DNA of 56,920 nt from Candidatus Acetothermia bacterium. GTDB lineage: Bacteria; Bipolaricaulota; Bipolaricaulia; UBA7950. The translations under genes were made by a program, and so were the position numbers. The stretch is from NCBI GenBank assembly GCA_022684035.1, contig JAJHSB010000033.1, positions 1 to 56,920 of the forward strand, written 5' to 3'. Below the pieces are notes generated by a model that searched no databases, was not told the DNA's origin, and saw only the letters and a program-made list of their open reading frames with translations. Of this stretch, positions 7,750 to 18,402 are shown piece by piece. How positions within the stretch are numbered: position 1 is the first letter of the stretch; each line of letters opens with the position of its first letter.

Positions 7750-9369
7750 TTGATGAAAATACAGCGTTCTATCAGTATAGGAGGATGGATAGCGCTTGCG
7801 TTGGCGTTGAGCGCGGCTTTGTGGGCCAACAAAGAGCGAAACGCTTGGGAGAGAGAATATCGCGGTATCACTCTGGCAGTTCATTTTGATCAGCGGTCTT
7901 ATAACAGTAAGTCTCTTTCATTTACTGAATTGGCACAAGCGGGAATAGACAGCATTCTGCTTCCCACTTCAAAGAGTATCGCTGATATAGCAATTATTGC
8001 GGCTGAGATAAATGCCGCAGGTCTTTCTCTCTACCTCTTTGTCGATCACGCGCGGCAATCAGAGGAAGAGTGGCAATCGCTGATCAATCTGGTGCATCCG
8101 CAAATTATCATATTAGATTCCACTCTCCAGTTGCAAGATGGGATAAGCAGCCTTGCAGCGGTAGTTACTGATAAATCCCTACCAGACCAGTCTGCGATTC
8201 AACTGGGAATGATCGAATTTTCTGACTTAACTATCATCCAGTACCTGTGGTGTCAGGGATGGCGCGATGTCATCCGTTTCCATGAAATAACAATCGAAGA
8301 GCTGCTGCCAATGGAAGAGAGAGAGATAATCGCCCGATGGCGTCGCGCTGTGCGGGAACGAAATATCCGTGGCCTTATTCTCCAGCCACTTCCGCACCTA
8401 TCTTTAGCAGAGAACCTCGCCTATTTCGCCCAAGTACACTCAGTAGTAAGTGCGATGGGATTTCAATCGAGAGCGCCAATATCCCTGCCATCGCCGCAAA
8501 GTCCGCTCATTCCCTTCGTGATCGGTATTGGTGTAAGCGCATTGCTGCTCCTCATCGCCCTGAAGCTACAACCGCAAAGAGCAACTATTTACCTACTGGG
8601 AAGTATAATCATAATTGGATTTGCTTTTTTGCTTCCGCTCGATAGCGTCATTGCGCGACAGACGATCGCCCTGCTGATCGCCCTACTTATGCCTCCTTTT
8701 GCCATACTCCTGCTGCTGCCGCGATTAAGCAACCGCAAAGGTTGGCAAGCGGGGATAATGACGGTTGTTCTGTTCTCTCTTATCTCCTTAAGCGCAGGAT
8801 TACTCATCAGTGCTCTTTTAGCTTCGCCTGCTTTTCTCGTCAAGGTACATCAATTTCGCGGTGTAAAACTTGCTCTGTCTCTTCCGCTTATCTTTACTGC
8901 GATTATCTATTATCGCGATGGTGGTTTCAGTTTGTTTTACCAACCTTTATCCCGGTTGCGTCGACCGAGCAAGTTATTCTTTATTGCTGCACTAATAGTG
9001 GTATTAGCGATCGTGATTCTCCGCAGTGGTGCTTACGGCTTGATATATCTGGAATTTGAAATGGCTATCCGGCAATTATTGGAAGAGACGCTTTACGCGC
9101 GGCCGCGATTCAAGGAGTTTCTGTTCGGCCACCCACTCTTATTCCTCGCTGCTGCGAGTACAGTGAGTAGTTTTAAGAGCATCGCTGTCGTGCTGGGAAT
9201 GGTAGGACAAGTATCAATCATCAACACCTTTGCCCATGCCCATACACCGATTTATCTCTCGCTGTTGCGCACTGGAAATGGGTTATTATTAGGGCTTCTT
9301 GCCGGCGGAGTGGTATATCTCGGTATTAAGTACGGTAAAAAGATACTTATTTGGTGTCAAGGTCGGTAA
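7750..9369 (+). CDS. DUF5693-like integral membrane protein
   Basis: RAVRERNIR, FRGVKL, RPRFKEFLFGHP, GQVSIINTFAHAHTP motifs; large soluble N-domain plus many C-terminal TMs. Confidence 0.65.
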   Translation: MMKIQRSISIGGWIALALALSAALWANKERNAWEREYRGITLAVHFDQRSYNSKSLSFTELAQAGIDSILLPTSKSIADIAIIAAEINAAGLSLYLFVDHARQSEEEWQSLINLVHPQIIILDSTLQLQDGISSLAAVVTDKSLPDQSAIQLGMIEFSDLTIIQYLWCQGWRDVIRFHEITIEELLPMEEREIIARWRRAVRERNIRGLILQPLPHLSLAENLAYFAQVHSVVSAMGFQSRAPISLPSPQSPLIPFVIGIGVSALLLLIALKLQPQRATIYLLGSIIIIGFAFLLPLDSVIARQTIALLIALLMPPFAILLLLPRLSNRKGWQAGIMTVVLFSLISLSAGLLISALLASPAFLVKVHQFRGVKLALSLPLIFTAIIYYRDGGFSLFYQPLSRLRRPSKLFFIAALIVVLAIVILRSGAYGLIYLEFEMAIRQLLEETLYARPRFKEFLFGHPLLFLAAASTVSSFKSIAVVLGMVGQVSIINTFAHAHTPIYLSLLRTGNGLLLGLLAGGVVYLGIKYGKKILIWCQGR

Positions 9370-9481
9370 AGACGGGAAATTTTTAGGGTTATAGATCGCT
9401 ATTGACTTTTTCCTTATTTCAATAGAGAATAAAATGATTGGATATGATTTAATCTCTCGCAAAGATAATCCGGAGGAAGTG

Positions 9482-10918
9482 ATGGCACAGCAGCAACTGG
9501 ATAGTGCACAAATTAGCGATCTATGGCGCAAAGCACGCTCTCTGTTGAATGATCGTGTTCTTCAAGCATGCCTCCCGCACAACTCAAAGCACATTGCCCT
9601 GGGAGAAGATACTGTCAAGATCAGGGTGGATAGTGAATTTAAGAAAGAGTACTGCTATCAAAAACTGGCTAAATTAGAGAAGATAGTGGGAGAAATTTTT
9701 GGAAAACGCTATGTCATTATCACAGAACTGCCTTTGATCGAAGAACTCGATCAAGTAAAAGAGGAACCCAAACTGCATACCAAGTTATCTGTATTAGGAA
9801 AAGAAGAGAGACAAACAGAGAAGGAACAGAAGCCGTATACTAAGATAGCTGTATTAGGAATTGGAGATGGCGGGTTAAACGCGATCAACAGGATGAAAGA
9901 ACAAGGTCTCCGCGGCGTCACATTGATCGCACTCGACACCGACCGTCAAATCCTGAGTATCTCCTCAGCCGACAAGAAAGTACAAATGGGAGCGGAGCTC
10001 ACAGCTGGCAGAGGGACTGGGGGTGACCTCAAGAAAGGTGAATTAGCAACAGAAGAATCTCGCTGGGAAATCTCATCCCTGCTTGCAGGAATGGATCTTG
10101 TTTTTCTTGCCTGCGGCCTCGGTGGAGGAACAGGAACGAGTGCTACTCCGATGATCGCCCAGATTGCGAAGGAAGCAGGAGCATTGACAATCGGGGTAGT
10201 CACGCAGCCATTCTCATTTGAGGGGATGATTCGCCAACAGAGAGCTGAGCAAGGATTACTCAAATTGCGGCAGACTGCCGATGTAACGATTGCAATCTCC
10301 AATGATCGTTTACTAGAGACAGCTCCAAAAGGATTATCGATGATTCAAGCATTTAAGCTCGCTGACAGTGTTTTGCACCAAGGCGTACGTGGAATCTCTG
10401 ATTTAATAACGATTCCGGGAATCGTTAATCTTGATTTCGCCGACATCCGTAGTGTTCTCGCTGGTGCAGGAACAGCAATGATGGGAATAGGTGAGGCACA
10501 AGGAGAACAACGCGGTCTTACTGCAGCAAAGTTAGCATCTTCTAATCCACTACTTGACGGTGGAACGATCCGCGGAGCACAGAAATTAATCATGAATGTA
10601 ACCGGCGGCACCGATATGACTTTAGATGAGGTGACGCAAGCCGCTGACCTGATCCGTAAAGCAACTATATCTGAATGTGAAATCATCTTTGGTGCAGTGG
10701 TAGATGAACGACTGACAGGTCGTCTGAAAATTACGGTGATTGCTACCGCCTTTCAAGCGGTCACGGAAAAACCGCTGCGCACCGCCTACAAGAAGCGCGA
10801 GCGAATATCAACGACCAATCTGGAAGTTCCAACCTTCTTGCGCCGCCAACAGCAAGAAGAGAAAGAGACAAAGAAAGAGACAAAGAAAGAAATAAGAGGA
10901 CAGAATTTAAAAAGATGA
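9482..10918 (+). CDS. ftsZ: FtsZ with N-terminal DnaA-domain-I-like extension
   Basis: GLGGGTGTS tubulin signature, VTQPFSFEG, ISNDRL, NLDFADI (T7 loop), C-terminal LEVPTFLRR. Start at 9482 chosen for RBS GGAGG (ORF track starts 9434). About 120 aa precede the GTPase domain. Confidence 0.9.
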   Translation: MAQQQLDSAQISDLWRKARSLLNDRVLQACLPHNSKHIALGEDTVKIRVDSEFKKEYCYQKLAKLEKIVGEIFGKRYVIITELPLIEELDQVKEEPKLHTKLSVLGKEERQTEKEQKPYTKIAVLGIGDGGLNAINRMKEQGLRGVTLIALDTDRQILSISSADKKVQMGAELTAGRGTGGDLKKGELATEESRWEISSLLAGMDLVFLACGLGGGTGTSATPMIAQIAKEAGALTIGVVTQPFSFEGMIRQQRAEQGLLKLRQTADVTIAISNDRLLETAPKGLSMIQAFKLADSVLHQGVRGISDLITIPGIVNLDFADIRSVLAGAGTAMMGIGEAQGEQRGLTAAKLASSNPLLDGGTIRGAQKLIMNVTGGTDMTLDEVTQAADLIRKATISECEIIFGAVVDERLTGRLKITVIATAFQAVTEKPLRTAYKKRERISTTNLEVPTFLRRQQQEEKETKKETKKEIRGQNLKR

Positions 10919-11045
10919 ATGGGGAATGGTGAAGAGAAATCACTTCCCTTTGGCAACTATCGCCTTATCAAACCGTTGATATTCTCATTTACTATTGACT
11001 ACTTACTTAAGGTGGATAGATTTAAAGTCTGAAGGTGAAAGGCTA

Positions 11046-11077
11046 ACGTAGGGGTACGGCATGCCGTGCCCCTACGT
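11046..11077. repeat. GTAG-type REP palindrome
   Basis: ACGTAGGGGTACGGCATGCCGTGCCCCTACGT, near-perfect palindrome; half copy GTAGGGGCACGGCA at 7378-7391. Confidence 0.8.
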
Positions 11078-11214
11078 GTTGTTCAAAGAGCCAATGTGAC
11101 AATGCGAGTTGTTTAGTTATTTATCATAAAGTATAATTATATTGATTATAATCACATTACAGAATGATGATTATATTTCAGAAATAGACTGGTAATCTGT
11201 AAAAGCGATTTGCA

Positions 11215-13005
11215 GTGAGGAGAATTTTAATGTCAAAGTACCATATTGGAATTGATATCGGATCACTTACAATTAAAGTAGTTGTGCTGGATGATGCCGA
11301 TCAGGTACGGGCAAAGATTTATCGCCCTTCTCACGGATCACCGCTGCCCGTTGCCAAAGCAGCCTTAGAAGAATTATTCACCGAGATTGCGCCGGCAGAT
11401 ATTAATGGTTTTGTCGCCACGGGATCAGGAGGACGCAAGCTGGCACAGATATTGAAGATCAATCATATCAATGAATTAATTGCGCAAACAAAAGCGGTAC
11501 AACGGTATTACCCAAAAGTGCGTACAGTAATTGAAATCGGTGGACAAGATTCTAAACTTCTGCTTCTCGGCGAGGAAGGAGGTCAACTGATACTCCAAGA
11601 TTTCTCACTCAATACACAATGTGCTGCTGGTACCGGTTCTTTCCTGGAACAGCAGGCCCAGCGGCTCGAACTTACGATCGAGGAATTCTCTCATCGTGCT
11701 ACACAGGCAGAGAATCCACCCAATATCGCCGGACGGTGCGCTGTCTTTGCCAAGTCGGATATCATTCACCTCCAGCAGGTGGGAACACCGCTAAATGAGA
11801 TCTTGGCCGGCTTATGCTTCGCCTTGGCGCGTAATTTCCGCAGTGATATCGGACGGGGGAAAGAATTCGTCAAGCCGATTCTCTTTCAAGGTGGAGTCTC
11901 ACTTAATCAAGGAATGATCAAGGCATTTGAGAAGATTCTTGATCTTGAGCAAGGAGAATTGATTATCCCCGAACACAATGTTTTGATGGCAGCGCTCGGG
12001 GCGGTTATTATCGACAAAGAACGGCGTGCGCGTGAGAGTCGGCGGGGTCATACCAACAACGATCAATCACCGAATATCGCCGCCAATTATCTGCAATCTC
12101 TTACTGATGCAATCGCTGAGCAGACAAACTACATTCATACTCCCCATACAAAGTTATCGATGCCCATAAAAGTAGGTAACAATTACCGCATTGCGCGTAC
12201 GACCGCTAACGGTCAACTGTGCGCATACTTAGGTATAGATGTCGGCTCGATCAGTACTAAAGCGGTGGCGATCGATAAAGAAGGACGACTGATAGCGCGT
12301 GTTTATTTACGTACTTCTGGTGATCCATTGCAGGCGGTACAAAGATGTTTATCCAAATTGCACGAGGATGCAGCAACGATGCTGCGTAATGTGCGCGGGG
12401 TAGGTGTGACCGGCTCCGGACGGGAGTTGATCGGTAAATTCGTTGGCGCTGATATAATAAAAAACGAAATTACCGCACAGGTCCGCGCCGCTGTGGCTAT
12501 CGACCCGAGAGTGGATACGATAATTGAAATTGGTGGACAAGACTCAAAGTATATCCGTCTGGAAAACGGGATCGTCGTTGACTTTACGTTGAATAAAGTC
12601 TGCGCCGCAGGCACAGGATCATTCTTGGAAGAACAGGCAGCACGATTAGGAATCGCAATCGCGGACTTCAGTGCGTTAGCACTTAACAGTGATCAGCCGA
12701 ATCGATTGGGAGAACGGTGTACGGTCTTTATTGAATCCGACCTGATCCATCACCAGCAACAAGGTTCATCAAAGAATGATCTCGTTGCCGGACTGGCATA
12801 CTCAGTCGCTTATAATTATTTAAACCGGGTTGTGGGCGACAAATCAATTGGCGAGCACGTATTCTTTCAAGGCGGAGTAGCTGGAAATGACGCTGTTGTT
12901 GCCGCTTTCCGCAATCTGCTCGGTCGAGAGATAATAGTTCCGGAACACCATGAACTCACAGGAGCGTATGGTATTGCGTTGATAACGCAAGAGGAGATGA
13001 AATGA
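11215..13005 (+). CDS. Acyl-CoA dehydratase activase, two BadF/BadG/BcrA/BcrD ASKHA ATPase domains
   Basis: Duplicated GIDxGS, EIGGQDSK, CAAGTGSFLE, RCxVF, FQGGV motifs. Start may be ATG 11230. Confidence 0.9.
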   Translation: MRRILMSKYHIGIDIGSLTIKVVVLDDADQVRAKIYRPSHGSPLPVAKAALEELFTEIAPADINGFVATGSGGRKLAQILKINHINELIAQTKAVQRYYPKVRTVIEIGGQDSKLLLLGEEGGQLILQDFSLNTQCAAGTGSFLEQQAQRLELTIEEFSHRATQAENPPNIAGRCAVFAKSDIIHLQQVGTPLNEILAGLCFALARNFRSDIGRGKEFVKPILFQGGVSLNQGMIKAFEKILDLEQGELIIPEHNVLMAALGAVIIDKERRARESRRGHTNNDQSPNIAANYLQSLTDAIAEQTNYIHTPHTKLSMPIKVGNNYRIARTTANGQLCAYLGIDVGSISTKAVAIDKEGRLIARVYLRTSGDPLQAVQRCLSKLHEDAATMLRNVRGVGVTGSGRELIGKFVGADIIKNEITAQVRAAVAIDPRVDTIIEIGGQDSKYIRLENGIVVDFTLNKVCAAGTGSFLEEQAARLGIAIADFSALALNSDQPNRLGERCTVFIESDLIHHQQQGSSKNDLVAGLAYSVAYNYLNRVVGDKSIGEHVFFQGGVAGNDAVVAAFRNLLGREIIVPEHHELTGAYGIALITQEEMK

Positions 13006-15500
13006 CTACAACAACAAAATTCCGTGGCTTTGAATTGGCGGAACACTCATATAAAACAGCGCACTTTACCTGTGATTTATGCTCCAATCTCTGTAAAATT
13101 ACCCGAGTTACTCTGCAAGACGAAGAGTCACTCTACCATGGAGCACGCTGTGGCCGATTCGACAGCCTGGTTGAAAAGGCGCATACCCACCACCATCCTG
13201 ATCTCTTTGCGGCGCGCAATCAGATTATTTTCGATCCTGAGAATACAGGATTAAAAATCGAAAAAGAGATATCTTTACCTCCGTATAGCGGGCAAGTCCG
13301 CGGTCGTATCGGTATTCCACGCACCCTTGCGCTGTGGGATAAATTCCCTTTTTTCGCTGCTTATTTCCGTGTGCTCGGCTATGAGATCATTCTCTCGCCG
13401 ATGACCGGGCAAAAGATTATCCATAATTCGGTGCAGGCGGCAGAGCCGAATATTTGCCTGCCGGCAAAGATAACTCATGGTCATGTCGAGATGCTGCTCA
13501 ACAAAGAGATTGATCATATCTTCCTCCCTGCTCTGATTGACATTGATCACGCCAATACACAGACGCGCACGAATTACACCTGCCCACTTATCCAGACCCA
13601 GCCCTGTATTATAAAAAGTCAGTTTGACTTCGCTGCGCACGGCGTCAACCTAATCGAGACTCCGTTCCATTTCTATCATGAAGCGAAAGTGAGGAAGGAA
13701 TTAACAGAGTTGGGACGTAGTCTCATTAAAAATCGAGCAACAGTCAGGCACGCGATTAACACAGGGTTTAACGCACAGCAAAATGCATATACTGCTCTGC
13801 AGCGACTTGGATCTAAGGCATTTGCTTGCATAGAAACCGGAAGTTTGGGGATAGTCATTTTAGGACGCCCTTATAATAGCTGTGATCATGGGATCAGTCT
13901 GGAAATTTCGCAGAAGCTACGCAAGCTCGGCGTTCTTCCCATCCCAATCGATATTCTCCCTTGGAATACGATCGATGTCGATAGAGATTACCCGCATATG
14001 CAGTGGCACAGCGGCAAGCGGATCATCGCCGCTGCTAAACTCGTTCAGCAAACGGATAATCTATACGGCTTATATCTCTCGCACTTTAATTGTGGACCAG
14101 ACTCGTTTATTCTCCATTATGTCAAAGAAATTTTAACCGGCAAACCATTCCTCAATCTTGAACTCGATGAACACAGTGCTGACGCAGGAGTAATTACTCG
14201 CTGTGAAGCGTTCCTCGACTCACTGACGTTATCGAAAGAGCGAGTCAACCGACAAGGACGATCCTCTCCCGTCTCCGCCCATTCGAAAACAGAACTCGAT
14301 CCCAGCAAGAAACTCTATCTGCCCAATATGCTTGACCATCATCACGCGATTGAAGGGGCATTGATCCATTTTGGCATCGACGCAGAGACTCTTCCGCCGC
14401 CCGATAAAGAGAGTATCATCTTAGGCCGTCAATATGCCACTGGTGGAGAGTGTTTACCATTCATCATCACTGCGGGTGATTTTATCAAACTCGTCACAAA
14501 GCCGGATTTTGATCCGGAAAAATCATCTCTGTTTATGGCAACGAGCAGCGGACCATGTCGCTTTTGCCATTATTTTGCCGCGCAAAAGTTGATCATGCGC
14601 AAACTGGGCGTTAAGGTTGACCTTGTCACACTTGAGTCGTACAGTGGCTACTCAATGAAAAGTTTAGGATCGTCATTCAGGCGGGCGACTTGGGATGGAA
14701 TAGTTGCGATAGATATGCTGCAGAAACTATTGTGGAAGACCCGGCCTTATGAAGCCGAGCGAGGTAGCACCGATATAGTATACCAACGAGCACTCAAAGA
14801 GATTCGTGCTGCGCTGATAAGCAACGGCCGCGCCGGCCTGATTTCATCATTACCCAAAATTATTACCCCGTTCAAGACGATAAAGCAGATTGAGGAAGAG
14901 AGACCATTGATCGGGATAGTAGGCGAGATCTACTTGCGCGTCAATGAGTTCAGCAACAGCAACCTTGCGCGACTGGTCGAAGAACTGGGCGGCGAAGCAC
15001 GTGTTGCACCGATGAGCGAATGGATTGCCTACACTAACTATAAAAAGGTCGGGGATACATGGGAGAAGCGGGAGATCAAAGCCCATCTCAAAGCACAGAT
15101 TGAAAAGAAGTTTCTCTCGCTCGATGAACATGCGATCGCACGTCTATTCAAAGAACAATTATCAGCGAATGATCTGGAAGAACCATTGACTGCGCAAGTC
15201 ATTGCCCACAGTGATCCCTATATCTCTGACGCCTATCGGGGAGAACCAGTACTGACAGTCGGTAAAGCGATCGACTATACGATCAAGGGATTTGATGGCA
15301 TTTTGAATGTAATGCCTTTTTCATGTATGCCCGGCGCAATGGTCAGTGCCGTCTCTACGTTGATAAAATGTGATTATCACTTACCCTGGTTGAACCTCAC
15401 ATTCGACGGCCAAGAACAGACCAATCTCCGTACGCGATTAGAGGCATTTCTCCATCAGGCGCAGGTACACAAAGAGAGACGTTCTGCAGTAATAAAGTGA
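13002..15500 (+). CDS. CoA-enzyme-activase-associated protein (DUF2229 / HgdAB-like domains)
   Basis: CxxCxNxC N-terminus, IGIPR, CLPAKITHGH, GRPYN, FNCGPDSF, LDEH, GPCRF, GIVGEIY, PFSCMPG. Confidence 0.85.
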   Translation: MTTTTKFRGFELAEHSYKTAHFTCDLCSNLCKITRVTLQDEESLYHGARCGRFDSLVEKAHTHHHPDLFAARNQIIFDPENTGLKIEKEISLPPYSGQVRGRIGIPRTLALWDKFPFFAAYFRVLGYEIILSPMTGQKIIHNSVQAAEPNICLPAKITHGHVEMLLNKEIDHIFLPALIDIDHANTQTRTNYTCPLIQTQPCIIKSQFDFAAHGVNLIETPFHFYHEAKVRKELTELGRSLIKNRATVRHAINTGFNAQQNAYTALQRLGSKAFACIETGSLGIVILGRPYNSCDHGISLEISQKLRKLGVLPIPIDILPWNTIDVDRDYPHMQWHSGKRIIAAAKLVQQTDNLYGLYLSHFNCGPDSFILHYVKEILTGKPFLNLELDEHSADAGVITRCEAFLDSLTLSKERVNRQGRSSPVSAHSKTELDPSKKLYLPNMLDHHHAIEGALIHFGIDAETLPPPDKESIILGRQYATGGECLPFIITAGDFIKLVTKPDFDPEKSSLFMATSSGPCRFCHYFAAQKLIMRKLGVKVDLVTLESYSGYSMKSLGSSFRRATWDGIVAIDMLQKLLWKTRPYEAERGSTDIVYQRALKEIRAALISNGRAGLISSLPKIITPFKTIKQIEEERPLIGIVGEIYLRVNEFSNSNLARLVEELGGEARVAPMSEWIAYTNYKKVGDTWEKREIKAHLKAQIEKKFLSLDEHAIARLFKEQLSANDLEEPLTAQVIAHSDPYISDAYRGEPVLTVGKAIDYTIKGFDGILNVMPFSCMPGAMVSAVSTLIKCDYHLPWLNLTFDGQEQTNLRTRLEAFLHQAQVHKERRSAVIK

Positions 15501-15995: not shown

Positions 15996-16985
15996 TTATT
16001 TCTTTCCACCGGGTTCTTTTTCTGCGGGTACTTTCGAAATGGAGGTACGCATCTCAGTATCAGCCATGATATTGCGCATGTTATAATAATCCATTATCCC
16101 CAGATTTCCTGCTTTGAACGCCTCAGCTATTGCTTGCGGCACGAGGACTTCGGCTTCGACAACTTTGGCCCGCATCTCCTGCACCAGGGCAAGCATTTCT
16201 TGCTCTTTGGCCACGGCCATTGCACGTCGCTCTTCTGCCTTTGCTTGTGCAATCTGTTTGTCAGCCTCTGCCTGATCTATCTGCAGTGCGGCGCCGATGT
16301 TCTTCCCTACATCGACATCAGCGATATCGATCGAGAGGATTTCAAATGCGGTGCCGGCATCGAGCCCCTTTTCCAGAACACGCCTAGATATCGAATCCGG
16401 ATTTTCCAGCACTAATTTGTGGCTCTCTGCTGAACCGATAGTGGTAACGATCCCCTCGCCAACACGGGCCAAGACAGTTGCTTCACCGGCTCCTCCGATC
16501 AGCCGCTCGATATTGGCGCGTACTGTAACTTTGGATTTAGCCTTGAGCTCGATGCCGTCTTTGGCCACTGCCGCCACAACCGGTGTTTCGAGCACTCTCG
16601 GATTTACACTCATCTGCACCGCTTCCAGAACATTGCGTCCGGCAAGGTCGATCGCTGCCGCGCGCTCAAAGGGTAATGGTATCTGGGCGCGCTGTGCGGC
16701 AATGAGTGCATCTACAACGCGACTTACATTCCCTCCTGCCAGAAAATGGGCCTCCAGCTTGTCGCTCTCTGCTTTTAAACCGGCCTTGACCGATTTGATC
16801 ATCGCCAGTACGATGAGTGCCGGCGGTACTTTACGCAAGCGCATCCCGATTAGAGCGCCGATTCCGATCGGTACTTTGGCTGCCAAGGCAGAGATCCATA
16901 GCCTGACCGGGATAAAACTGCCGATGATCAGTATGACAACGACAGCTATTCCAATAAGGATTAGTGTGATATTCCCTCCATTCAT
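15996..16985 (-). CDS. floA: Flotillin-like protein FloA (YqfA)
   Basis: [51 protein letters not shown]. Start 16985 after RBS GAGGAGG (track start 17060). Confidence 0.92.
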
Positions 16986-17076
16986 GTGAAAAACCTCCTC
17001 TAAAAAAATGCCAACAATTGTCCCAGCTATTCCCGTGAGTAGCCATTTCCAGAAAAACATCTAGAGCCTTTTAATT

Positions 17077-18402
17077 TTAGTCTTTTTGGCGCACGCGACG
17101 CACAATGACGCGTGTGCCCTCGACTTTACGCACTTCTATTTCGGTACCTTTATCGATAAACTCGCCATCAGTGACAACATCGACGCGGGAATCACCAAAT
17201 TCCGCAGTGCCGGCCGGGCGTAGCGGAGTGATTACGCGGCCAATCATTCCAACGAGATCTGATCGCTCCGGTACTGCTGTATACCCTGAATCAACGCTCT
17301 CCTCATGCTGGAGCACAAAGCGGCCGAATAGTCGACTACCACGCCCCATTACCTTTACTGCAACGATCGCTCCTATCACGCTGACCACAAAGCCGGCTCC
17401 GAGGTAGATTGCTCCGTACCCTGGCGATGGAGCAGCCATGATGATGCTGGCGATAATCCCGCTGGTTCCCAGTACTCCCAATATACCACCGGGAACGAAA
17501 AGTTCCGCGATCAAGAGCGCAATACTGGCAATAATAAGGAGGAGTATCTCCCATCCGACCAAACCGGCAAAGAGGTGGCCGCCGAAGAAGAGAAGGAGTG
17601 CTACTGCCCCAATCGGCGCAGTTATCGCCCAGGAACCAGTCATAATCGCTGTCGTTATTGCAAGCGAACCGAAGCTGAACAAGAGCGCACTGATAGTGGG
17701 ATGCGTTACCCAACTGGCAACGTGTTCGAAAAAGGCGGGATAGATCACCACCACTTGATATTGCTCTAAATCATAGAGGCGCAATACCGCTTCCCGAGTA
17801 GCAAGGAGGTGATCGGCAAGCTTCAAGTCTACCGCTTCTTCCGCAGTCAGCGACAGTATTCTTCCACGCTCGACGACCCCCTCGATCTCGATCCGTGCAT
17901 CGGCCATCGCCTCCACCAATCTCGGGTCTCTGCCTGTCGCCTCTGCTGCTGCTCGCAGGCGGGATTTCCAATACGACAGCACCTTCTCATCGAGCGGTCG
18001 CGGTTCTGCTGCACCGATCGTTGAACCTGGTGCCATCACCACTCCCTTGCGAGCGGAGATAGTGATCAGCACTCCGGCAGAGGTCGCCTCGCGGGTGACG
18101 AAGCTGATCACCGGAACGGGACTTGCCAACATACGGGCGCTGATATCTATCACTGCATCGAGCCGCCCTCCCGGAGTATCGATCTCTACGATCACCGCAC
18201 GAGCATTGGCTCGCGCTGCCTCACGCAACGCGCGGTTGACAAAACCGGCTGCTCCCCAATCGATGACTCCGCGGATGGGAATGATGTAGAGACTTCCTCC
18301 CGATCCACTTCCTCCTGATCCGATTATTACGCCGGAAAGCAACCCAGCGGCAGCAAGCAGGATACAGACTATTCTCACAATTATCTTCTTTCTCCTGCCC
18401 AT
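17077..18402 (-). CDS. nfeD: NfeD/YqeZ membrane-bound serine protease-like protein
   Basis: EIDTPGG, SAGVLI, IGAAEP ClpP-like domain; TM region; C-terminal OB fold TPLRPAG...DVVTDGEFI. Confidence 0.9.
   Translation of the reverse strand: MGRRKKIIVRIVCILLAAAGLLSGVIIGSGGSGSGGSLYIIPIRGVIDWGAAGFVNRALREAARANARAVIVEIDTPGGRLDAVIDISARMLASPVPVISFVTREATSAGVLITISARKGVVMAPGSTIGAAEPRPLDEKVLSYWKSRLRAAAEATGRDPRLVEAMADARIEIEGVVERGRILSLTAEEAVDLKLADHLLATREAVLRLYDLEQYQVVVIYPAFFEHVASWVTHPTISALLFSFGSLAITTAIMTGSWAITAPIGAVALLLFFGGHLFAGLVGWEILLLIIASIALLIAELFVPGGILGVLGTSGIIASIIMAAPSPGYGAIYLGAGFVVSVIGAIVAVKVMGRGSRLFGRFVLQHEESVDSGYTAVPERSDLVGMIGRVITPLRPAGTAEFGDSRVDVVTDGEFIDKGTEIEVRKVEGTRVIVRRVRQKD

Follow-up and report, generated by a model that had tools for sequence, protein, structure and literature searches.

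Why should a cell division protein FtsZ carry, ahead of its GTPase domain, a segment that resembles part of a replication protein? The question is raised by a gene at positions 9,482 to 10,918 of contig JAJHSB010000033.1 (assembly GCA_022684035.1) of an uncultured groundwater bacterium (Candidatus Acetothermia, phylum Bipolaricaulota); all coordinates refer to the window, that is, the whole stretch of 56,920 nt that was analysed. The initial annotation of this DNA described the gene product as FtsZ fused to a domain resembling DnaA domain I and placed the gene outside a dcw cluster. The coordination of replication and division in bacteria is a long-standing question, and the known links between the two processes are indirect, namely Min, nucleoid occlusion, Ter linkage and metabolic or DnaA-dependent checkpoints; at this locus a single polypeptide brings them together, with an intact FtsZ bearing a module that has elsewhere been seen in replication proteins alone (DnaX/tau, DnaA and DciA). 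We are highly confident that the fusion protein is a true FtsZ with its GTP-binding, NLDFAD and C-terminal-peptide motifs intact, that the extension belongs to the coding frame and is an independently folding member of the DnaA_N/DnaX_C/DciA group, and that the fusion arose once, within a clade of second FtsZ copies (FtsZ2), and was kept in three families beside a canonical ftsA-ftsZ pair. We refer to the protein as FtsZ2-KH and to its N-terminal domain as FtsZ-N; judging by its sequence, this second FtsZ paralogue should be able to polymerise, and it is likewise predicted to act in division.

We examined the reading frame and the motifs of the FtsZ part, which are listed below with the gene and its putative ribosome-binding site.

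9472..9476, + strand: Shine-Dalgarno-like GGAGG, 5 nt upstream of ATG 9482 (read off the sequence).
9482..10918, + strand: ftsZ2-KH gene with its stop codon, encoding an FtsZ paralogue that begins with a DnaX_C/DnaA-domain-I-like module.
9842..10321, + strand: Tubulin/FtsZ GTPase domain, residues 121-280 (PF00091, E 6.4e-39).
10121-10141, + strand: G-box GGGTGTS inside the GTPase domain, aligning with the canonical FtsZ of the same genome.
10427..10444, + strand: NLDFAD motif, the same in the canonical copy and lying in the invariant columns N332-D337 of P0003.
10469..10753, + strand: FtsZ_C domain, residues 330-424 (PF12327, E 3.1e-27).
10820..10846, + strand: C-terminal peptide LEVPTFLRR, aligning with DIPAFLRR of the canonical FtsZ and followed by a K/E-rich tail.

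The open frame extends from 9434 to 10918 on the + strand (494 codons), and translation from the ATG at 9482 yields a protein of 478 residues that includes the peptide quoted in the initial annotation. The ATG at 9482 is the best-supported start, because GGAGG precedes it, the alternative ATG at 9434 has no comparable ribosome site, and the 16 residues that the upstream start would add before MAQQ are not common to the close relatives. Between 9734 and 9893, a codon scan detected none of the start codons ATG, GTG and TTG in frame, and the ATG at 9893 is located downstream of the GxGxGG motif of the GTPase domain, so that a protein beginning at the FtsZ core is not available from this frame. 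The frame thus offers no start codon near 9839, a position at which the initial annotation had allowed that translation might begin, and the approximately 120 residues that it counted ahead of the GTPase domain are borne out by the PF00091 match, which begins at residue 121. The protein scored 358.8 bits against the NCBIfam ftsZ equivalog TIGR00065 over residues 111-443, compared to a cut-off of 295.2 (360 bits in the genome scan). The NLDFAD motif (NxDFAD) is presumably the T7 synergy loop, and we take the C-terminal tail to be the FtsA/SepF-binding peptide; the P, F, L, R and R of that peptide are invariant, with a family consensus of LDxPAFLRR. The alignment of both motifs with those of the canonical copy agrees with the earlier observation that the T7 loop and an FtsA/SepF-type peptide are kept.

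The extension consists of a folded domain and a linker, with the following features.

9503..9736, + strand: N-terminal KH-like domain, residues ~8-85 (AlphaFold model, conservation, fold and profile matches).
9725..9745, + strand: post-domain motif E-[LP]-P-L-[IVL]-E-E, here ELPLIEE, residues 82-88 (from alignments; E82 and P84 nearly invariant).
9737..9841, + strand: variable linker between the N-terminal domain and the GTPase core (pLDDT below 50 at residues 87-98; length differs among relatives).
9762..9867, + strand: in-frame 60-nt tandem duplication (9762-9807 and 9822-9867; copies 76% identical).

An AlphaFold model of the N-terminal domain made with a 69-row alignment reached a pLDDT of ~86-88 over residues 10-80 and showed the topology alpha-alpha-beta-beta-alpha-beta, with helices at residues 8-21, 25-30 and 52-73 and strands at 38-40, 44-49 and 77-82, followed by the low-confidence linker. 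A whole-protein model from a 5-row alignment was poor (mean pLDDT 52.6) and was used solely for the order of secondary-structure elements. The two highest-ranked Foldseek matches in the PDB were chains of one DnaA domain I entry, 4tps_D and 4tps_B (E 0.017 and 0.052, probability 1.00 and 0.99, TM-score by target 0.67 and 0.70). With VIA, an aligner independent of Foldseek, 4tps_D was the sole match at Z of at least 8 among 48,161 chains (Z 9.0, rmsd 2.2, 75 of 84 residues), and the matches that followed were the DciA proteins of V. cholerae (Z 7.4) and D. radiodurans (7.0), the N-terminus of E. coli DnaA (6.7), H. pylori DnaA domain I (6.4), residues 519-595 of E. coli tau (5.8) and M. genitalium DnaA (5.3), interleaved with type-II KH proteins such as RbfA, NusA, Era and Der. 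The KH-like fold anticipated by the initial annotation is therefore the one that the model predicts, with DnaA domain I as its top structural match.

Profile comparisons pointed to the same group of proteins. When a profile of the extension was run against all PDB sequences (E up to 10), three matches were recovered, the first being B. subtilis DnaA domain I (4tps_B), a weak match at E 0.075 that nevertheless aligned profile positions 12-77 with chain residues 5-74, nearly the whole length. The 69 FtsZ-N sequences aligned in hhalign with 33 DnaX C-terminal domains at 93.7% (P 1.8e-7, score 41.1, 70 columns) and with 30 DnaA domain I sequences of the phylum at 91% (P 1.1e-6, score 36.7, 64 columns); for comparison, DnaA_N against DnaX_C gave 94% (P 1.4e-7, score 41.3, 75 columns). 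The alignment with 31 DciA sequences reached 24% (P 8.1e-4, score 23.5, 18 columns), and the controls scored 11.5-14.4 when reversed and at most 16.7 with 40 column-permuted profiles per test (at most 16.3 in the DnaX_C test). We also searched Pfam with the 69 rows singly, 68 from full-length fusions and one the N-terminal piece of the window's protein, at E up to 1: DnaX_C (PF20964) was matched by 17 of the 69 with a best E of 4.6e-5, DnaA_N-like_STI by five, DciA by three and DnaA_N by one (E 0.049). PF20964 scored 25.0, 20.2 and 20.0 bits on the FtsZ-N of three genomes in the genome scans, compared to a cut-off of 26.2; with the same model one DnaA domain I scored 25.2 bits, and PF05258 gave 17.2 bits in one relative. 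An ESM Atlas feature search with residues 1-95 returned unnamed clusters (0.91-0.93), DnaA_N-like_STI (0.90) and DnaX_C (0.89), which we treated as leads and did not count as support.

From these results, the extension is a divergent member of the DnaA_N/DnaX_C/DciA fold group, about equally close to DnaX_C and DnaA_N, with DnaX_C as the nearest Pfam model; it is a module of ~80 residues, type-II-KH-like and homologous to the DnaX/tau C-terminal domain (PF20964) and DnaA domain I. The resemblance to DnaA domain I that was first proposed is upheld by the PDB profile match, the hhalign comparison, the predicted fold and the VIA score, but the PF11638 model itself is silent, with no match to the window's protein at E up to 10, and finds DnaA alone in the genome scan. 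A passing remark in the initial annotation on the DnaX C-terminal domain proved to be the better guess, given the hhalign result and the weak Pfam matches in 17 of the 69 rows. As for DciA/DUF721, also raised at that stage, the likeness holds at the level of the fold (Z 7.0-7.4) and not at the level of profiles.

FtsZ-N shares with DnaX_C the pattern W..vL...(strand)L.IEvd..F.K..LeK...LeeaV..v.G..v.I, and in alignments with DnaA domain I (PF11638; PDB 4TPS, 2E0G, 2WP0, 2JMP), its best structural match and its top PDB profile match, its W15 and F53 pair with the 'LW' Trp and the 'PNxF' Phe. The N-terminal KH-like domain of DciA (PF05258/DUF721; PDB 8A3V, 7YKM) belongs to the same fold group with a weak sequence relation. 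The domains differ in their settings: DnaX_C forms the C-terminus of an AAA+ clamp-loader subunit and DnaA domain I sits on the initiator AAA+ module, whereas FtsZ-N is N-terminal on FtsZ and has invariant motifs of its own that distinguish it from DnaX_C (DRiLRACLP and DSxFKKxYxxRK). The window's genome encodes all of the corresponding replication proteins separately: a DnaA with domain I, a DciA adjoining dnaA, a DnaX with its own DnaX_C, and a DnaB.

We analyzed the spread of the extension, first with single-sequence searches. It is 74-79% identical in three close relatives, whose proteins start with MAQ(Q/R). Database names of close relatives likewise assign the organism to Candidatus Acetothermia/Bipolaricaulota. 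A phmmer search with the 119 residues against 1.84 billion representatives gave 12 matches at E up to 0.001; inspected by eye, seven continue into FtsZ GTPase motifs, four are short fragments and one is a repeat protein, P0017. P0017 was dropped as a family member, as unrelated or artefactual, since only a 20-residue stretch matches. This protein of 710 residues is made of 13 near-identical tandem repeats of ~52 residues, each with an L-L-L-D-R-V-L-R-A-C segment resembling helix 2 of FtsZ-N, and may be an assembly or gene-calling artefact. Against longer database proteins, a profile of the domain gave 79 matches, all of which carry PF00091 and 78 of which also carry PF12327 (length 353-494 residues). 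Its 13 matches among short proteins are partial genes or fragments, three of them with PF00091, and there is no stand-alone family of the N-terminal domain among these 13.

Across 184 genomes of the phylum, which we sorted into families f1 to f11, the domain profile matched 128, with one match per genome: three of three in f1 plus the window's own genome, 69 of 74 in f2, 47 of 50 in f3, 8 of 18 in f8 and none of the 38 genomes of the other seven families. The matches in f1-f3 are strong (E 1e-21 to 1e-48), in-frame and stop-free, in frames that span ~440-620 codons where no contig end truncates them. In f8, the eight matches are weak (E 4e-6 to 5e-4, one per genome) and fall in the DnaX C-terminal domain, not in FtsZ, as checked for five of the eight by open reading frame plus Pfam or by coincidence with PF20964. 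In total, the fusion is present in 120 of the 184 Bipolaricaulota (Acetothermia) genomes, all in families f1-f3. This stop-free, in-frame presence, together with the identity in the close relatives, argues that the extension is not due to chance, and it answers the doubt of the initial annotation as to whether the extension is conserved. W15, D24, L27, P32, K54, Y57 and K61 are invariant in the 69 sequences and R28, C30, L31, S51, F53, R60, L65, G74, E82 and P84 nearly so, and these residues define the family motifs W-R-x-V-L, D-R-I-L-R-A-C-L-P, D-S-x-F-K-K-x-Y-x-L-R-K-L and, after the domain, E-L/P-P-L-I/V-E. The last of these, E-[LP]-P-L-[IVL]-E-E in the wider alignments, is located right after the last strand of the N-terminal domain in a part of low model confidence, and may serve either as a linear motif for binding or to cap the fold. 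The codons copied in the 60-nt duplication are those for the last part of the linker and for the first beta-strand of the GTPase core (HTKLSVLG / YTKIAVLG). It occurs only in this genus-level group, and the longer linker that goes with it is common to the three closest relatives and absent from the distant fusions.

We weighed against these results the possibility that the extension stems from an error of annotation or assembly, or is a leader that is not translated, in front of an ordinary FtsZ. Besides being a general possibility, it can draw on the missing Pfam match of the N-terminal 119 residues; however, we regard it as scarcely credible in view of the protein-level conservation of a stop-free, in-frame segment in the 120 genomes and the 79 database clusters, the Shine-Dalgarno-like site before 9482, the lack of a start codon between 9734 and 9893, the confidently predicted fold, and the recovery of the stretch in other sequencing runs. 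Twenty public runs contain the stretch; they include groundwater metagenomes and two metatranscriptome libraries of a single study. The first of these yielded a 1353-nt contig over 9460-10812 with 0 differences, and the second yielded contigs over 9491-9792 and 9787-10652, so that in both libraries the passage from the extension into the GTPase core is covered. The contigs from the RNA libraries leave the flanks 9200-9391 and 10864-11100 uncovered, which is not evidence on transcript ends.

The initial annotation proposed a survey for a second, canonical ftsZ, and such a gene is present. The window's genome (1.56 Mb in 81 contigs, 92.6% complete) gave two matches to TIGR00065, and the second is a canonical ftsZ of 364 residues on another contig, directly after ftsA. 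The two genes occupy 245-1480 (ftsA) and 1477-2571 (ftsZ) of their locus (L001), and the overlap of the ftsZ start with the ftsA stop by 4 nt (1477-1480) suggests that the canonical pair is translationally coupled, whereas the fusion gene stands alone. The canonical FtsZ is 48% identical to the fusion over their common part and shares its GTPase domain, FtsZ_C, G-box (GGGTGT), NLDFAD and C-terminal PxFLRR. The fusion differs from it by the ~120 extra N-terminal residues, by the location of its gene away from ftsA, by its membership of the separate FtsZ2 clade, and by a T3-type loop that reads GRGTGGD in place of GLGAGGN. In FtsZ2 copies, the glycine-rich loop after the second strand block is T-A/G-G-R-G-T-G-G-D, compared to T-G-G-L-G-A-G-G-N-P in canonical copies, and this FtsZ2-specific change sits in a nucleotide-contacting loop.

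Two or more TIGR00065 matches were found in all four f1 genomes (the window's included), 64 of 74 in f2, 46 of 50 in f3, four of four in f10, the single f4 genome, one of 19 in f6, four of 18 in f8 and none of the 14 genomes of f5, f7, f9 and f11; these matches are not strict copy numbers, and weak E-values of the kind seen with split genes occur among the f8 cases. In f10, f4 and the one f6 genome, the frames of the second copies have 350-380 codons, no more than 28 of them ahead of the core, and thus lack the N-terminal domain. To place them, we made a tree of 46 FtsZ cores from this phylum (22 canonical copies, 19 fusions and five domain-less second copies; 339 columns) using IQ-TREE with LG+G4 and 1000 ultrafast bootstraps (UFBoot). 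In this unrooted tree, the second copies and the fusions together formed one clade, FtsZ2, with UFBoot 100, and the 19 fusions formed a single clade within it with a support of 99. The simplest reading is that one duplication would have given rise to FtsZ2 and that the common ancestor of f1-f3 then acquired the domain once, and the source of the domain is likely a DnaX_C/DnaA_N-type domain of the same lineage.

One explanation is that FtsZ2-KH acts outside the division ring, as a specialised filament, for example in polar prosthecae or in positioning the chromosome or replisome, with the N-terminal domain as a cargo adaptor. The distance of the gene from the ftsA-ftsZ locus, the long branches of FtsZ2 and the changed T3-type loop are consistent with this, and bipolar prosthecae are described in an Acetothermia bacterium, in a paper that makes no mention of Fts genes (PMC6092417). 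We nevertheless consider such a role very unlikely, because the strict conservation of the FtsA/SepF-type C-terminal peptide points to a membrane tether shared with FtsZ1, the canonical copy, and because the score of the protein is above the ftsZ equivalog cut-off.

If FtsZ2-KH does belong to the division machinery, its FtsZ core and FtsA-binding tail would let it assemble into, or beside, the FtsA-tethered Z ring. The N-terminus of FtsZ exits the filament opposite the C-terminal tether, as seen in work on 'inside-out' Z rings, and the module, on its flexible linker, would for this reason face the cytoplasm, away from the membrane. There it might dock FtsZ2 filaments onto a component of the replication machinery, with DnaB or the alpha subunit of Pol III as candidates and single-stranded DNA (ssDNA) as an alternative, and the assembly or position of the ring would thereby depend on how far chromosome replication has come or on where it takes place. 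That the N-terminal domain tethers FtsZ2 to a replisome component or to fork DNA, and so couples ring assembly or position to replication, is the likeliest of the readings and seems to us close to an even chance, judging from the analogy with its homologues. The whole chain, with FtsZ2 in or next to the ring, the module docking its filaments to a replication component and division tied to replication, is a tentative proposal that we place somewhat short of even.

The analogy rests on what is described for the related domains. A KH fold is shared by the N-terminal domain of DciA, DnaA domain I and DnaX domain V, and the last two are described as DnaB interactors (PMC9912922); from the same paper and an account of DnaA (PMC5448010), the homologues of FtsZ-N appear as docking modules for DnaB, regulators and Pol III alpha, with a weak affinity for ssDNA. 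In E. coli DnaA domain I, Trp6 is critical for dimerisation, Phe46 binds DnaB, DiaA and YfdR, and Glu21 is a second DnaB contact (PMC5448010). We attempted a structure prediction of the genome's DnaB (19-row alignment) with residues 1-95 of FtsZ-N (69 rows), which gave no answer (score 0.00, mark 0.32, run without controls) and weighs neither way.

The same domains suggest a different function, in which FtsZ-N would associate with itself and thereby bundle or cross-link protofilaments, either of FtsZ2 or of FtsZ1 and FtsZ2 mixed. It would be a Zap-like bundler that forms part of the filament protein itself and has no link to replication. The invariant W15 of helix 1 aligns with the 'LW' Trp of DnaA, which in E. 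coli is the dimerisation residue Trp6 (PMC5448010); in addition, ZapA was not found in the window's genome, and the flexible linker of 25-50 residues would suit a cross-linker. Dimerisation is not general for the fold, however, as H. pylori domain I does not associate with itself (PMC5448010), and the most conserved patch of FtsZ-N is the basic face of helix 3 (S51, F53, K54, Y57, R60 and K61), which in DnaA is the partner side and not the dimer side. We therefore consider bundling an unlikely explanation.

The basic helix can also be read as a nucleic-acid surface. The N-terminal domain might bind ssDNA at forks, other DNA, or RNA, and so anchor FtsZ2 and give the ring a positive or negative signal linked to the nucleoid, without any protein partner. 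The fold matches beyond the replication proteins are of the type-II KH kind (RbfA, NusA, Era, Der and ribosomal proteins), the basic residues K54, R60 and K61 of helix 3 are conserved, and weak ssDNA binding is described for DnaA domain I (PMC5448010) and ssDNA binding is reported for the DUF721 domain of DciA (PMC12547741). On the other hand, the sequence shows no evident GXXG-type loop, the binding of single KH-like domains is weak, and the domain is only mildly basic, and for these reasons binding to nucleic acid as the sole function appears quite unlikely to us.

Returning to the proposal that the module docks FtsZ2 onto the replication machinery, a number of observations weigh against it. 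The partner of the N-terminal domain is a prediction from homology, and the DnaA-type interface for DnaB is only partly kept, as judged from the profile alignment, because the position of E. coli Glu21 falls on the invariant P32 of FtsZ-N in a helix 2 that is three residues shorter. All sequence links to DnaX_C and DnaA_N are below curated cut-offs, the first 119 residues of the window's protein itself have no Pfam or NCBIfam match even at E up to 10, and the Foldseek E-values are weak, with no PDB match at E of 0.001 or less. The FtsZ2 copies without the domain in f10, f4 and one f6 genome show that FtsZ2 has a role independent of the domain. In the 18 relatives and the window that were surveyed, the genes around the fusion vary from family to family, and none of them concerns replication or division. 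With regard to expression, DNA may be present in RNA libraries, and the ends of transcripts cannot be read from contigs.

The genomic setting gives the proposal a broader form, in which FtsZ2-KH would be a direct replisome-divisome coupler, a filament-forming division protein with its own copy of the module by which tau and DnaA hold the polymerase or DnaB, and the Z ring, in bacteria that lack Min, would be licensed or positioned by the replication machinery or exposed DNA in place of Min and nucleoid occlusion; at this breadth we hold the proposal to be doubtful. MinC_C was found in none of the 130 genomes of the phylum that are at least 85% complete. We considered MinC as an anti-correlate of the fusion, but this candidate was set aside, as no contrast is possible when it is found in none of the 130 genomes. 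Neither SepF nor ZapA was found in the window's genome at its 92.6% completeness.

To our knowledge, none of the archaeal, plant or cyanobacterial FtsZs has a folded domain from a replication protein. FtsZ paralogues and N-terminal additions are known in other lineages, namely the FtsZ1/FtsZ2 pairs of archaea and of plants and a short N-terminal peptide in cyanobacteria; in the pairs, two paralogues share one cell with roles that are presumably divided, as may be the case here, and the cyanobacterial FtsZ resembles FtsZ2-KH in having an addition at its N-terminus. Full-text searches found no description of an FtsZ with this domain, their scope leaving aside most subscription journals and supplements, and term searches of a paper on FtsZ/tubulin evolution and of a preprint on DciA diversity gave nothing relevant in the main texts. 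The literature is thus in line with the remark of the initial annotation that no FtsZ of this architecture was known to it, and the source databases label these fusions simply 'cell division protein FtsZ'. What is new is the domain architecture of the FtsZ and the context of the DnaX_C/DnaA_N fold, for which this would be the first other context; FtsZ itself and the fold group are already known. The fusion has long persisted, being present in three families and in 120 of the 184 genomes of a phylum that is uncultured and in which no MinC was found, and the analysis defines an FtsZ2 paralogue clade in Bipolaricaulota. Even if the module merely bundles filaments or binds DNA, it would represent a new in-cis regulation of FtsZ.

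Some variation was seen among the replication proteins of the phylum. Pfam DnaA_N was matched in none of ten f8 genomes that are at least 90% complete, compared to 19 of 20 in f2 and 20 of 21 in f3, and the DnaA of f8 may be without domain I or have a very divergent one. The DnaB frames are 865-916 codons long in several genomes (L191/L200, which are G105/G095, and G084, G090 and G041), compared to ~455-475 elsewhere, a size expected for an intein-containing DnaB.

The placement of the fusion gene outside a dcw cluster was confirmed, as its flanking genes are not of that cluster: a DUF5693 membrane protein is encoded upstream, and a BcrAD/BadFG-type ATPase followed by a DUF2229/HGD-D protein downstream. 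We extended the comparison of neighbourhoods to 18 relatives, a survey that is descriptive only, since the program used to pick open reading frames lost the fusion gene in three of the 18 loci (L106, L109 and L115). No neighbour is common to all families, but some are conserved locally: those in f2 encode an RNase H-like protein, a protein without assignment, an OmpR-type regulator, a GNAT protein, a PKD protein and PhoH, and those in f3 encode a beta-helix/DUF192 protein, a HAD protein and an M1 peptidase. In the window, 11215-15500 on the + strand encodes a protein of 596 residues with two BcrAD/BadFG-type ATPase halves and, overlapping it, a DUF2229/HGD-D-like protein of 832 residues; this pair has the pattern of a fused activase with a 2-hydroxyacyl-CoA-dehydratase-like partner. 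Further downstream, at 15996-18402 on the - strand, a FloA flotillin-like protein adjoins an NfeD1b-type membrane protease-like partner, the usual operon pair.

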